Assembly (NCBI GenBank): GCA_964652635.1
Contig: CAZZBY010000001.1
Span: forward strand, 1-27,676
DNA from: an uncultured Candidatus Marinamargulisbacteria bacterium
GTDB lineage: Bacteria > Margulisbacteria > Marinamargulisbacteria > SXXA01 > SICP01
Direction: 5' to 3'
DNA length: 27,676 bases
Shown: one piece after another, positions 9,216 to 14,246 of the stretch
How positions within the stretch are numbered: the stretch's first letter is position 1
Layout: every line of letters begins with the position of its first letter
Program-made: the position numbers and the translations under genes
Notes under the pieces: generated by a model
Told to the model about the DNA's origin: nothing
The model's database searches: none
The model's input: only the letters and a program-made list of their open reading frames with translations

Positions 9216-9291
<76 letters not shown>

Positions 9292-9322
9292 CCTCAAAAA
9301 AATCCTAAAGAGTGACAGAATC

Positions 9323-10348
9323 ATGAAAAAAAATCCTGAAAAAGACCTCTTGCCCAATCCCACCAATACCGGAATATTTGGGCTCACCTGCACTCAAGAC
9401 GAAGCAGATTTCATCATTATTCCAGTCCCATGGGATGTCACGGTCAGCTACCGAGAAGGAACATCAACAGGCCCTGTAGCTGTCATTAAAGCCTCCCCTC
9501 AGCTCGACTTATTTAACCCTTCCATCATCGATAAAAACATCAATATCATCTCAGCACTACCAGTCAACCCTCAGTGGAAATCTGAAAATAATCGCTTAAG
9601 GACTATTTCAAAAAGACTCATAAAAAAAATGGAAAATGGAGAAATATTTTCTACACAAGACCACGCTGAGTTAGACGATATCAATCATGGATGCGAAACA
9701 CTACACCAAGAAATCGAAGCCTTATCCAGTATCTACCTCAATCAAGGAAAAATCGTAGGATTATTGGGAGGAGACCATAGCGTGAGTTTAGGAAATATCC
9801 GAGCCGTCTCCAAAAAACACCCAGGCCTAGGAGTACTTCAAGTCGATGCTCACATGGACCTCAGAAAATGCTTCGAGCGTTTTCCGTATTCCCACGCGTC
9901 GATTATTTATAACTCACTCAGTAATACCAATATTTCAAAAATTGTCCAAGTCGGTATCCGGGATTACTGCGAATACGAGTACAATCAAGTCCAAGAGAGT
10001 AACGACAAAGTCATAACATTTTTTGACATTGATCTTAAAAAACAACTCTTTAACGGTATAACTTGGCATTCATTATGCCAAGACATCATCAACACGCTGC
10101 CAAAGGAAGTCTATGTGACATTTGACATCGACGGCCTCAACCCCTGCGAATGCCCAGATACTGGAACTCCAGTCCCTGGTGGATTGACATTTTCAGAAGC
10201 CGCATACTTGCTTCAAAGCATCAAAGCCAGTAATCGAAAAGTTGTCGGATTTGACTTGGTAGAAGTTACCCCAAGTCAAAATGAAATCAATGTCATCAAT
10301 GGAGCACGCATGCTATACGAACTCATCAAATCCAGCATGAGTGTATGA
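9323..10348 (+). CDS. speB: Agmatinase family ureohydrolase
   Basis: GGDHS, DAHMD, TFDIDG and TGTPVPGG Mn-binding motifs; polyamine gene neighbourhood. Start at ATG 9323 because the ORF-track start lies inside tRNA-Phe. Confidence 0.88.
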   Translation: MKKNPEKDLLPNPTNTGIFGLTCTQDEADFIIIPVPWDVTVSYREGTSTGPVAVIKASPQLDLFNPSIIDKNINIISALPVNPQWKSENNRLRTISKRLIKKMENGEIFSTQDHAELDDINHGCETLHQEIEALSSIYLNQGKIVGLLGGDHSVSLGNIRAVSKKHPGLGVLQVDAHMDLRKCFERFPYSHASIIYNSLSNTNISKIVQVGIRDYCEYEYNQVQESNDKVITFFDIDLKKQLFNGITWHSLCQDIINTLPKEVYVTFDIDGLNPCECPDTGTPVPGGLTFSEAAYLLQSIKASNRKVVGFDLVEVTPSQNEINVINGARMLYELIKSSMSV

Positions 10349-10734
10349 AGCAACGACGATTTCACCACCTCAGCATTATCGGATTATCACTTCTGTTTTT
10401 ACTATCGCATGCAGGAATATCATCATTAGTAATTTCAAGTAAGCAAACTCAGAAGCACAATGATACCTGCCAAGAAAGCTGTTGCTGTGCCCCTGGAAAT
10501 TGCAACTGTGATCATCATAGAAGCAAATCAGGAACAACCTTAGTATTTGAATCACCAGACTGTAGCCCAATTAAAAAGTCAGCATCGTTGTCATCCCATA
10601 TAAAAGAAATTCCCATACCAATAGTAGTAGCTGCCATATCTCCTGTCATCAAAGAGTCTAGTGAAATTTCTGAGCAAATCCAATTGCAGATCACGATATC
10701 ATCACAAGCGTTATTTAGGCCTCCGATGAGTTAG
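10345..10734 (+). CDS. Small membrane-anchored Cys/His-rich protein with C-terminal FRPP (DUF2946-like architecture)
   Basis: N-terminal hydrophobic segment, CQESCCCAPGNCNCDHH, ends LFRPPMS. ATGA overlap with the agmatinase stop. Confidence 0.6.
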   Translation: MKQRRFHHLSIIGLSLLFLLSHAGISSLVISSKQTQKHNDTCQESCCCAPGNCNCDHHRSKSGTTLVFESPDCSPIKKSASLSSHIKEIPIPIVVAAISPVIKESSEISEQIQLQITISSQALFRPPMS

Positions 10735-10744
10735 ATTTGAAATA

Positions 10745-10859
10745 ATCACCCCCCATCACTTCGTGCCCCCTCTCCAAGAGGGAAATCAGCAGATGACAAC
10801 AGTCTCACAAAAAAATTCTCTTCTTAGAAGGGGTGGCAGGTAAAGCCTGACGGGGTAGT
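10745..10859. repeat. Degenerate inverted pair of REP-like elements
   Basis: Left arm atcaccccccatcacttcgtgccccctctccaagagggaa resembles the reverse complement of the right arm (actaccccgtcaggctttacctgccaccccttctaagaagagaa), with about 30 bp between them. Confidence 0.65.
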
Positions 10860-10884
10860 CACTTAAACTTCACGGGAGACATAA

Positions 10885-11850
10885 ATGAAAATCAGCCAAA
10901 TTCTAGCAATAGGCCTAGCCTGCATCGTCACAATATCCAGCCTAAACGCAAGCTGCGGATGCGCAAACTGCCCAATAATCAACTACAGCCCAAGCACCGA
11001 TAAAAGAGTAGAAATCGGGCTAAGCTACGAATACATCAATCAAGACCAAATCTATATCGGTAACAATCGATCCACGGTAGGCGCAATCCCAGAGCATCAC
11101 GATGAAAAGGAAACCCTCAACATGTTGTACATCGTAAACGCAAAATACGCCATAACCCCGGAGTGGAGACTACGGGCAGCGCTCCCTTACACTCACCGAG
11201 TCCATGAACACATCCACAATCATCACGGAGAGCAAGAGATAGAAAAATGGGACATCAGTGGATTTGGAGATATCGAAATCGTGAGCGATCACACGCTCTA
11301 TCGCAGTGGGGACTCAGAGTTGGGGATAACCGCAGGGGTCAAACTACCAACAGGCAAAACCCACCTCAAAAATAACAAGGAGGAAGAAGCCGAGGTCTCA
11401 ATACAACCCGGATCAGGATCAACCGATTATTGCGTAGGTCTTTTTTATCAACATGGGCTCATCACAGTCCCCAATACAGATAGGCAGTATATGCGTTTAC
11501 CCATCATACTTGGCACCACCTACACCATAAGTGGACGAGGCACCGAACAATGGCAATTTGGAAACAAACTACTCGCCAACATCGGCACCAGCTATCTGGT
11601 GTCTAAAAAAATATCTACAGGGCTAGATATAACCTACAAATCTCAGAAAAAGGCACTCAGCGGCAGTACAGGTGAGCCATCAGATAACACTGGAGGAGAA
11701 TGGGTATATATCGCACCAAACATCGTAGTAGCACTAAGCCATGTCATATCACTCAAAACAGTGGCTCAAATCCCAGTATGGCAAGATGTCAATGGACTCC
11801 AAACCGTCTCTCCATGGAATCTCCGAGTCGATCTAGGACTTCACTTCTAG
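10885..11850 (+). CDS. Outer-membrane beta-barrel ('transporter' family) with Cys/His metal-binding motifs
   Basis: Signal peptide ending LNA, mature N-terminus SCGCANC, PEHHDE and HEHIHNHH loops, SGFGDI, GVKLPTG, QPGSGSTD, alternating strands, terminal Phe (LGLHF). Confidence 0.75.
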   Translation: MKISQILAIGLACIVTISSLNASCGCANCPIINYSPSTDKRVEIGLSYEYINQDQIYIGNNRSTVGAIPEHHDEKETLNMLYIVNAKYAITPEWRLRAALPYTHRVHEHIHNHHGEQEIEKWDISGFGDIEIVSDHTLYRSGDSELGITAGVKLPTGKTHLKNNKEEEAEVSIQPGSGSTDYCVGLFYQHGLITVPNTDRQYMRLPIILGTTYTISGRGTEQWQFGNKLLANIGTSYLVSKKISTGLDITYKSQKKALSGSTGEPSDNTGGEWVYIAPNIVVALSHVISLKTVAQIPVWQDVNGLQTVSPWNLRVDLGLHF

Positions 11851-11887: not shown

Positions 11888-13057
11888 TTAATGTACCATA
11901 TCCAACTTAAAGGCAACGTTCCCCAACCGAGCCTTAAAATCCTCATAGGTAAAGGTACGGTCCAAATGAAATATACCATCCTGATCTACGCGACCAATCG
12001 AGGGGAGGGGAATTCCATTAAAAAACGTACTTTTAACCATCGTATAGTGCGCCATATCTTTAAAAATTAATTTTTGACCAATTTGAAGAGGTTTATCAAA
12101 GGAATAATTTCCAATCACATCCCCAGACAAACAAGTCGTCCCACCCAAGCGATAGGTATACTCCTTTTCATTAGGTTGAGCCGCCCCTTCAATTTCAGGA
12201 CGATAGGGCATTTCAATCACATCCGGCATATGTGCACTAGCTGAGGAATCAATAATCGCCAAATTCATATCGTTGTACATCAAATCCACAACCGATGCGA
12301 CTAGAAACCCAGTCCCAAAGACAACACCTTCACCAGGCTCCATAATAAACTGAACATCAAACTCATTACGAACTACTTTAATCAATCGGATCAAGCGATC
12401 AATATCATAATTAGGGTAAGTCAATCCATGGCCTCCACCACAATTCACCCACTTCATATGGTGCAACAAATCCGAAAATTTTTCCCGAACCACTTCAATC
12501 GTCCGCTCAAGCGAATCCACATGCTTTCCACATAGAGTATGAAAATGAATGCCATCCAACTTAGTAAAATCGAATTTAGATTTATCCATTTCTTCTCGAG
12601 TCACACCTAGGCGAGAAAAAGTACAGCATGGGTCATAAAGGGGATAATTCACTTCCGAATGCTCTGGATTAACCCGAAGCCCAATATCAATATGCGGATA
12701 TTGATCACGAACAAAATAGTAATATCGCTCCAACTGAGACAAGGAATTAAAAACAATATGGTGAGAATACTGACAAATATCATCAATTTCATCGGGTTTA
12801 TAGGCCGGAGAATACACATGGATCTCCTTTCCAAATGTCTCATGGGCCAACCGTGCCTCATTCACCGAACTGGCCGTTGTCCCACTCAAATACTGAGAAA
12901 TCAATGGAAATACCGAAAAAGTTGAAAATGCCTTCAATGCCAAAATAACTTTAGCACCCGTTTCGGTTTGAATACGATTCAGTCGTTCCAAATTTGACTT
13001 TAATCGTCTCTCATCAATCACGTAGCAGGGGGATGGGATATCAGCTAAGGGCAACAT
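11888..13057 (-). CDS. nspC: Carboxy(nor)spermidine decarboxylase
   Basis: PSPCYVIDE, ILALKAFS (PLP Lys), HFHTLC, GGGH, EPGE, HMPDVIEMPY, CLSGD. SD AAGGAG before the ATG at 13057. Confidence 0.94.
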   Translation of the reverse strand: MLPLADIPSPCYVIDERRLKSNLERLNRIQTETGAKVILALKAFSTFSVFPLISQYLSGTTASSVNEARLAHETFGKEIHVYSPAYKPDEIDDICQYSHHIVFNSLSQLERYYYFVRDQYPHIDIGLRVNPEHSEVNYPLYDPCCTFSRLGVTREEMDKSKFDFTKLDGIHFHTLCGKHVDSLERTIEVVREKFSDLLHHMKWVNCGGGHGLTYPNYDIDRLIRLIKVVRNEFDVQFIMEPGEGVVFGTGFLVASVVDLMYNDMNLAIIDSSASAHMPDVIEMPYRPEIEGAAQPNEKEYTYRLGGTTCLSGDVIGNYSFDKPLQIGQKLIFKDMAHYTMVKSTFFNGIPLPSIGRVDQDGIFHLDRTFTYEDFKARLGNVAFKLDMVH

Positions 13058-14246
13058 GGGCAATCTCCTTGTAAGGTAATCCAAATTTTTCGACACGCGC
13101 CATAAATGGGTCTGGGTCAAGTTCTTCCAGGTTAACCACACCTGGCGTCATCCACACCCCTTCTATCATCAGCACCGCCCCCAACAAAGCCGGCACACCA
13201 GTAGTATACGAAATTGCCTGAGCCCCAACCTCACGATAGCATTCATGATGATCACATACATTGCAAATAAAAAGAGTGTGAGGCTGTCCGCTTTGGACCC
13301 CTGAAATTAAACATCCAATCGATGTTTTACCTGTATATTTTTCAGACAAAGAATTTGGATCCGGAAGAAGTGTTTTTAAAAATTGAATCGGAACAATTTC
13401 AACACCGTTATGGACAACCGGATCAATTCGCGTCATCCCAACATTTTCTAAAACTTTAAGGTGATTTAAATAGGACTCTGAAAAGGTCATCCAAAACCGA
13501 AGTCGTTTTACCCCAGGGATATTGACCGCTAAAGATTCCAGTTCTTCATGATACATAAGGTAAGCCTGACGAACGCCAACACCAGGAAAATCAAAGTCAA
13601 TTTTAACCGACAAAGGATCCGTTTCTTTCCACTGGCCATTTTCAAAATAACGACCACGTTGGGTAATTTCTCTAATATTAATTTCGGGATTAAAGTTGGT
13701 AGCAAAGGGAAGTCCATGACTTCCACCGTTGCAATCTAAAATATCAATCGTATCAATTGCGTCAAAATAATGTTTAAGCGCATAAGAACAGTACACATTC
13801 GTCACCCCAGGATCAAAACCGCAACCTAAAGTGGCCATCAGACCAGCACACTTAAATCGATCACGATAAGCCCACTGCCAATGGTACTCAAATTTAGCGA
13901 TATCTGGAGGCTCATAATTGGCCGTATCCAGGTAATGCGCACCTGCTTCTAAGCAGGCATCCATAATCGAAAGGTCTTGATAGGGAAGGGCAAGATTCAC
14001 AACCAGGGCAGCATGAGTCTGTTTAATCAGCTGACCAAGAGAGGGCACATCGTTAGCATCGACCTGATAAGTTTCAAAAGAAGATCGGCATTTTGCACGA
14101 AGATCATCACACACTGATTTTCGACGGCTTGCCACATGAAGGGAAAAAGGCTTAGGATCAAGCAAATCCCATTTGCGGACAAAAACCTGGCCGACTCCGC
14201 CAACACCGATCAACAGGACATTTTTGATTATGACTACCTCCTTCAA
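13041..14246 (-). CDS. Carboxy(nor)spermidine dehydrogenase/synthase (saccharopine dehydrogenase family); start uncertain (TTG 14246, ATA 14231 or ATC 14228)
   Basis: Rossmann IGVGGVG, HYLDTANYEP, GCGFDPGVTN, DILDCNGG, FATNFNPEINIREI. Directly upstream of and overlapping nspC. Confidence 0.92.
   Translation of the reverse strand: MKEVVIIKNVLLIGVGGVGQVFVRKWDLLDPKPFSLHVASRRKSVCDDLRAKCRSSFETYQVDANDVPSLGQLIKQTHAALVVNLALPYQDLSIMDACLEAGAHYLDTANYEPPDIAKFEYHWQWAYRDRFKCAGLMATLGCGFDPGVTNVYCSYALKHYFDAIDTIDILDCNGGSHGLPFATNFNPEINIREITQRGRYFENGQWKETDPLSVKIDFDFPGVGVRQAYLMYHEELESLAVNIPGVKRLRFWMTFSESYLNHLKVLENVGMTRIDPVVHNGVEIVPIQFLKTLLPDPNSLSEKYTGKTSIGCLISGVQSGQPHTLFICNVCDHHECYREVGAQAISYTTGVPALLGAVLMIEGVWMTPGVVNLEELDPDPFMARVEKFGLPYKEIAHVALS

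Follow-up and report, generated by a model that had tools for sequence, protein, structure and literature searches.

A Cys-rich leader with a C-terminal Pro-Pro motif before an outer-membrane channel gene in Marinamargulisbacteria: a candidate metal-sensing arrest leader

Metal sensing by a nascent exported peptide is a recently described regulatory principle, linked up to now with DUF2946. In the prototype, CruR (Bp2923; DUF2946/PF11162) of Bordetella pertussis, the ribosome stalls on RAPP, copper is sensed via CXXC, correct spacing is needed and a downstream outer-membrane transporter is controlled through Rho (PMC9426467); the arrest was demonstrated in vitro (PMC12992588). CutF of Rhodobacter capsulatus (cutFOG) detects copper in the periplasm while it is being exported, and unmasks the ribosome-binding site (RBS) of the next gene (PMC9973294; bioRxiv 10.1101/2025.02.05.636593). 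Its Pro-rich motif is not a strong staller alone (PMC9973294). Partners of DUF2946 genes given in the CruR and CutF papers are TonB-dependent transporters, PepSY_TM, PCuAC, Sco, YcnI, CopC, MbnPH, AhpC_TSA, RND efflux components and HupE/UreJ; no mention of PF13557 as a partner was found in their main texts and accessible supplements, figures apart. The DNA analysed here is a stretch of 27,676 nucleotides (nt) from an uncultured Candidatus Marinamargulisbacteria bacterium (contig CAZZBY010000001.1, assembly GCA_964652635.1), hereafter the window. It holds a small Cys-rich open reading frame (ORF), termed the leader, directly before the gene of a predicted outer-membrane beta-barrel (Table 1). 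The leader is interpreted as a CruR/CutF-type arrest leader that would sense a metal, probably copper, before a metal channel (probability about 0.6). Genomes are labelled G000 (the source assembly; 1.25 Mb, 244 contigs, 65% complete), G001 (same genus), G027 (same class) and so on.

The locus resembles CruR in its small first gene, in its export signal and Cys motif, in a stretch of about 50 residues with little conservation or structure, and in basic-(x)-Pro-Pro about 3 residues before the stop. A long leader-barrel spacer (162 nt in CruR, 150 nt in the window), an outer-membrane transporter as the next gene and Rho in the carrier genomes are also shared. It differs from CruR in showing no sequence or profile similarity, in its sensor (a six-Cys CCCxPxxCxC cluster plus the Cys of DCSP, against CXXC), in its core ([FL][RHK]PP in the window family, against RAPP), in its cargo (a TonB-independent PF13557-like barrel, against a TonB-dependent transporter) and in its host (Margulisbacteria, against Proteobacteria). 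Points shared with CutF are a Sec signal, a CxxxC element (C42-x3-C46 in the window, where it is part of a Cys cluster of another form), a C-terminal Pro motif that is weak alone (probably so in the window), a sensor-to-motif stretch of about 45 residues, and RBS unmasking as a possible output, which in the window family is predicted in 5 of 7 loci with marginal statistics. There is no homology to CutF, which switches on a periplasmic multicopper oxidase (detoxification), whereas the cargo in the window is an outer-membrane channel. As in ApdA, ApdP, ApcA and SecM (PMC7897499, PMC10951233, PMC12992588), the gene before the putatively regulated one encodes a small secreted or membrane protein with an arrest-type motif close to its C-terminus. 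Here the Arg abuts Pro-Pro, without the intervening Ala or Gly of their R-[A/G]-P-P or R-A-G-P, the next gene does not code for a Sec or YidC component, and arrest is a prediction.

A word-based protein search returned no homolog of the leader; a six-frame genome search and a full hidden Markov model (HMM) search succeeded instead. The HMM, built from five leaders, found only 20 proteins at E ≤ 1e-3 among 1.84 billion cluster representatives. The leader is a member of a real, rare family. Nearly all members share a hydrophobic helix at the N-terminus, CCCxPxxCxC, one more Cys (usually in DCSP) and a C-terminal [FL][RHK]PP; their sequences are otherwise only about 20-25% identical. The tail after this core comprises 2-5 residues in most members and up to 20 in three; one member ends in RPQ and one, from Elusimicrobia, in IPPP. 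In an alignment of 22 leaders (mean column identity 26%), C46, C48 and P126 were invariant and C53, C55, C73 and P127 were at least 90% conserved. These five Cys and two Pro were the sole invariant or near-invariant columns. In a closer set of leaders, C42, C46, C47, C48, P50, C53 and C55 were invariant; the cluster of the window leader (residues 42-58) reads CQESCCCAPGNCNCDHH. In 18 of the 19 members that could be scored, the third Cys stood 51-54 residues ahead of the first Pro of Pro-Pro (mode 52), across a sequence that was not conserved. As in the export signals of DUF2946 leaders, a basic n-region and a hydrophobic stretch were conserved (judged by alignment and AlphaFold2 (AF2)), and an (S/T)H(A/G)G motif was conserved at the end of the N-terminal segment. 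The AF2 model of the leader contained a helix at residues 4-22, with a predicted local distance difference test (pLDDT) of 50-65 in the remainder and a predicted template modelling score (pTM) of 0.26. Past the N-terminal helix the leader is therefore modelled as an unstructured chain, a picture that matches the published description of CruR (PMC9426467).

An earlier sequence-only reading of the window had proposed a CruR-like metal-sensing arrest leader in control of an outer-membrane transporter. Both ORFs and the motifs SCGCANC, HHDE and HEHIHNHH were found where it had placed them, and these motifs and those of the leader are not due to chance, since they are conserved in relatives. The FRPP it had described as C-terminal lies near the end, with Met-Ser between it and the stop. 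Its interpretation is supported in part. The central idea gains strong comparative support from the conserved tail, the Cys cluster, the fixed spacing, the pairing with a barrel gene and the DUF2946 genes found before the same barrel family; the membership in DUF2946 that it had suggested checking was not recovered (see below).

The leader was followed directly by a co-oriented gene of a PF13557-like barrel in every resolvable case, always with one barrel superfamily. The resolvable cases were G000, G001, G004, G027, G006, G023, G051, an Elusimicrobia locus (L023), a metagenome locus (L111) and a Marinamargulisbacteria contig with adjacent locus tags 000416 (barrel) and 000417 (leader). This tally leaves out most metagenomic leaders (P0111-P0126), and G009 and G038, in which contig breaks interrupt the locus; in G009 the leader lies at one contig end and a different contig begins with the barrel. 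The six-frame search of relatives gave the full leader form before the barrel in G001, G004 and G027, and a truncated form in G006. In G023 (L109:2014-3009) and G051 (L106:1-613) the leader precedes a second barrel subtype. L111 was the one true leader locus from a metagenome pattern scan, which also returned one false locus (L112). What precedes the leader varied: agmatinase was seen there only in G000 and G001, G004 has an adhesin-like gene, and further genes take this place in other loci. The leader thus always lies directly 5' of the His/Cys barrel gene, yet is second after agmatinase in the window. Genes downstream of barrel homologs were heterogeneous, and the unit is therefore essentially two genes.

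For the barrel, 106 homologs were found. The window barrel itself had no match in Pfam. Homologs at 34-43% identity to it (P0004, P0007, P0036) and others scored 25-32 bits against PF13557 (Phenol_MetA_deg; cut-off 22 bits), and proteobacterial relatives also exceeded the cut-off. The AF2 model (35 sequences) was all-beta, with a pLDDT of 87.8, a pTM of 0.83 and a low-confidence N-terminal Cys-pair segment. In Foldseek, FapF (5o65) and Pput2725 (4rl8), a COG4313 channel, matched best, at E values of about 1e-11 to 1e-12 (3e-12 to 9e-12) and template modelling scores of 0.64-0.76. In 14 homologs from several phyla, C24, C29, H71-H72-D73-E74, R105, H107, H109, H111 and H113 were invariant, and C24 and C29 were at least 90% conserved in 35 homologs. 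The Cys/His motifs faded only in the most distant PF13557 relatives, and the barrel was therefore assigned to a Cys/His-bearing subfamily of its own within a known channel superfamily. The predicted fold is like those of Pput2725 (4RL8) and FapF (5O65), and PF13557 is matched above threshold by relatives of the window barrel; the invariant N-terminal Cys-x4-Cys, HHDE and HxHxHxH set the window's subfamily apart. The second subtype, which stands behind the same leader family in G023 and G051, was without the N-terminal Cys pair, had a His/Met-rich start (DSHAPIGVMADHTH...MFSYRYMSMSM) and matched PF13557 at 1.4e-6.

The genes before homologous barrels connect the subfamily with DUF2946. When 185,579 species genomes were scanned for the barrel motif RxHxHIH[NH]H[HE], 80 loci were obtained, mostly in Beta- and Gammaproteobacteria, and the barrel was placed in 77 of them. 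In at least 26 of these 77 the preceding ORF had CxxC or CxxxC and a C-terminal Pro-Pro tail, mostly R[AGS]PP. Ten upstream ORFs of proteobacterial barrels were tested against PF11162 and eight matched, which also served as the positive control for the HMM. Among 117 upstream ORFs tallied, DUF2946 was by far the commonest (15), followed by PCuAC (3) and AhpC-TSA/thioredoxin-like proteins (3). The DUF2946 genes before homologous barrels had 45-51 residues from CxxC to Pro-Pro and a tail of mostly 3 residues; the corresponding distance in the leader family (51-54) is similarly fixed. The window barrel subfamily is associated with DUF2946 and PCuAC, as opposed to the aromatic catabolism or amyloid genes on the COG4313/FapF side. 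From its motifs and this context, the Cys/His barrel is probably a copper channel. In some Burkholderiales loci (L038:2223-2924, L083:2087-2881) a PCuAC copper chaperone gene lies directly upstream of the barrel homolog, with no DUF2946 leader there.

Copper is the most likely metal, over nickel, cobalt, zinc and manganese: the barrel subfamily is partnered by DUF2946 and PCuAC, the sensor is rich in Cys, and the second barrel subtype starts with a Met/His-rich segment. Zinc, nickel or cobalt may be the metal instead. A heme-copper oxidase was found in G001, G004, G009 and G027, in line with copper, and COX1 in 33 of 41 genomes of the class; being near-universal in the class, the oxidase does not discriminate. 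NiFe hydrogenase, a nickel sink, was looked for and not found. A link to agmatinase and manganese was rejected: the overlap of leader and agmatinase genes, which the earlier reading had taken as translational coupling to a Mn enzyme, is confined to the genus (G000, G001), with different upstream genes elsewhere.

On the arrest-leader interpretation, the leader would be exported co-translationally via its N-terminal signal. With the ribosome at FRPP, about 35 residues would occupy the ribosomal tunnel and about 20 would span SecYEG, which would bring Cys73 to the periplasmic mouth, with the six-Cys/two-His cluster just beyond it. A thiophilic metal (most likely copper) bound by the cluster could alter the pulling force on the nascent chain and thereby the length of the Pro-Pro pause. 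The pause length would set expression of the next gene, either by exposing the barrel RBS, which can pair with the last codons of the leader, or by blocking Rho. The product would be a TonB-independent channel of 12 to 14 strands, with the conserved Cys/His residues as lining or plug, carrying the same metal across the outer membrane. Predicted folds paired the Shine-Dalgarno (SD) sequence of the barrel gene with the stall footprint (the stretch under a Pro-Pro-paused ribosome) in 5 of 7 full-length loci. In the window, GGGAG paired with CCUCC of the Pro codons in both the minimum free energy structure and the pair probabilities. Masking of the SD sequence by the stall site is, on these models, suggestive. 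Rho was present in all four carrier genomes searched and elongation factor P (EF-P) in three; EF-P was not found in G000 (65% complete). A CutF-like and a CruR-like output are therefore both possible.

Several observations weigh against this interpretation. None of the 22 leaders matched the PF11162 HMM at E ≤ 10, and hhalign of the 22 leaders against 18 DUF2946 leaders aligned just 12 columns, all in the signal region, with a probability of 8.4%. The leader core is x-R-P-P, not R-[AG]-P-P. RPP was not depleted in long ORFs of G000 (33 observed, 33 expected), and FRPP alone is therefore probably a weak staller; RAPP and RGPP were each observed 0 times there, with about 2 expected. The truncated leader of G006 (L010:2257-2442) has the transmembrane segment and the Cys cluster without DCSP and without the Pro-Pro tail, so that the Cys cluster may have an independent function. 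Barrel genes without any leader were found in G002, G008, G005 and G010. Resampling of synonymous codons in the seven loci gave a marginal combined p of 0.048 (Fisher) for the SD pairing, which was absent in G001 and G051. Finally, the inverted-repeat spacer that the sequence-only reading had singled out was found to be mostly a dispersed genomic repeat. The G006 leader lies 24 nt before a shortened barrel without the HHDE region, and its last codons still pair with the barrel SD sequence in the predicted fold.

The spacer was rejected as a specific hairpin or riboswitch. Its fold was no better than that of shuffled sequences (z-score -1.4), it matched no Rfam family, no terminator or promoter was matched on its + strand, and its length varied across loci (150, 88, 66, 58, 51, 44, 43, 28 and 24 nt; 24-88 nt in relatives). 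The 12-mer GACGGGGTAGTC has at least 13 copies in G000 (65% complete), with about 50 nt of aligned flanks, so that the inverted repeats are not locus-specific. The repeat unit is a palindrome of about 50 nt with two short hairpins ending in GACGGGGTAGTC and resembles a repetitive extragenic palindromic (REP)- or miniature inverted-repeat transposable element (MITE)-like element; one copy is at 10815-10860 (also 10750-10790). The 5' part of the spacer shares a 12-mer with two other sites, and the G001 spacer also has the GACGGGGTAGTC 12-mer.

The leader and its 21 relatives had no match in Pfam at E ≤ 10 or in NCBIfam at E ≤ 1, HYC_CC_PP/DUF8199 included. Its neighbours in a protein language model included DUF2946/CzcI clusters (0.93) and two Bacteroidota DUFs, which is a lead only. 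The Cys motif of the leader (C-x3-CCC-x-P-x2-C-x-C plus the separate Cys73) differs from CXXC of CruR and CxxxC of CutF, and no Ala, Gly or Ser stands between the basic residue and Pro-Pro. The leader is built like DUF2946 leaders but was not filed as DUF2946, because there is no sequence match and the stall core differs. Judged from the sequences, it may be either convergent with CruR/CutF or diverged beyond recognition. A stronger form of the proposal, a convergent class of arrest peptides with an [FL]RPP stall, a six-Cys periplasmic sensor and a 52-residue ruler, gating a TonB-independent Cys/His-lined copper channel widespread in Proteobacteria, Margulisbacteria, Elusimicrobia and Ignavibacteria, is put forward tentatively, at odds well below even.

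The one serious alternative, judged unlikely, is that the leader acts alongside the barrel as a stable metal-binding protein, periplasmic or anchored in the membrane, such as a chaperone or metallothionein-like shuttle that takes metal from the channel, with [FL]RPP as a docking motif and the 52-residue segment as a linker. Real metal binding would suit the seven conserved Cys, the two His and the conserved DCSPIKK, the G006 leader keeps the transmembrane segment and Cys cluster without the tail, a true chaperone (PCuAC) is encoded upstream in other barrel loci, and the strict gene pairing is as compatible with a protein complex as with regulation. However, the region from Cys73 to Pro-Pro is unconserved and predicted to be disordered, and the architecture of the leader copies that of DUF2946 leaders, whose cis-regulatory role is shown and which hold the same position before the same barrel family.

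A lesser and improbable alternative retains arrest but makes the leader a sensor of envelope thiol-redox or secretion state, in which the stall would be relieved, and barrel synthesis tuned, by disulfide formation within the cluster or by the pulling force of Sec. RAPP-type small ORFs are enriched upstream of genes for DsbA and thioredoxin-like proteins too (PMC12992588), AhpC-TSA/thioredoxin-like genes recur beside barrel homologs, the cluster has many adjacent Cys, and the barrel itself has a Cys pair. The commonest partners of the barrel family, though, are DUF2946 and PCuAC, both copper-linked, and the His-rich barrel motifs and the Met/His-rich N-terminus of the second subtype point to metal binding. 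Plain translational coupling without sensing, with the Pro-Pro tail and Cys being structural and the barrel moving a non-metal substrate like COG4313 channels or FapF, is highly improbable: the fold matches channels for hydrophobic substrates and amyloid export, the metal role of the barrel is drawn from motifs and context, and RPP is not avoided in the proteome, but the invariant Cys/His motifs are absent from distant PF13557 relatives, and the association with DUF2946 and PCuAC and the fixed Cys-to-Pro-Pro ruler also speak against it.

The locus suggests that the architecture of CruR and CutF (signal, Cys sensor, spacer of about 50 residues, basic-Pro-Pro and short tail) occurs outside DUF2946, with another sensor and core and in an uncultivated phylum. 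If so, surveys by the DUF2946 HMM or by RAPP/RGPP undercount such leaders. Outer-membrane copper uptake is poorly understood beyond TonB-dependent receptors, and the barrel subfamily (Cys-x4-Cys, HHDE and HxHxHxH; commonest upstream partners DUF2946 and PCuAC) is a candidate small outer-membrane copper channel. Culturable carriers of the barrel are Massilia, Thiobacillus, Noviherbaspirillum and Thermithiobacillus, and the barrel is thus amenable to experiment.

Table 1. Features of the leader-barrel locus, in window coordinates.
Feature	Position	Strand	Remarks
Leader ORF	10345..10734	+	129 aa (coordinates include stop); predicted exported, mostly unstructured, Cys-rich
N-terminal signal/membrane-anchor segment, residues ~4-33	10354..10443	+	Hydrophobic; conserved in 22-leader alignment; AF2 helices 4-22 and 26-33
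Cys/His cluster C-x3-CCC-x-P-x2-C-x-C-x-HH, residues 42-58	10468..10518	+	Candidate metal-binding sensor
DCSP, residues 72-75, with third conserved Cys (C73)	10558..10569	+	C73 to first Pro of Pro-Pro, 53 residues
FRPP, residues 124-127	10714..10725	+	Candidate ribosome-arrest core; followed by Met-Ser-stop
Leader-barrel spacer	10735..10884	+	150 nt; C-rich, inverted repeats; ~10815-10860 is a copy of the dispersed palindromic repeat
SD sequence GGGAG of barrel gene	10874..10878	+	Predicted pairing with CCUCC of leader Pro-Pro codons
Outer-membrane beta-barrel gene	10885..11850	+	321 aa; divergent PF13557/COG4313-type channel
SCGCANC, barrel residues 23-29	10951..10971	+	Cys-x4-Cys pair directly after signal peptide
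HHDE, barrel residues 71-74	11095..11106	+	Invariant in 14-homolog alignment
HEHIHNHH, barrel residues 107-114	11203..11226	+	His at alternate positions, end of beta-strand (strand 94-113 in AF2 model)
Agmatinase gene (context)	9323..10348	+	PF00491 at 1e-54, TIGR01230; TGA overlaps leader ATG (ATGA 10345-10348)

Genes for tRNA-Thr and tRNA-Phe lie just upstream of the agmatinase gene, with a tandem repeat between the two. The longest agmatinase ORF (9257-10348, from TTG 9257) overlaps tRNA-Phe (9216-9291), and ATG 9323 is more likely the true start. Downstream, convergent on the barrel gene, genes for carboxynorspermidine decarboxylase-like and saccharopine/carboxynorspermidine dehydrogenase-like proteins were found (11888-14246, - strand). 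Together with agmatinase these two genes form a polyamine gene neighbourhood, which in this genus is interrupted by the leader-barrel pair.

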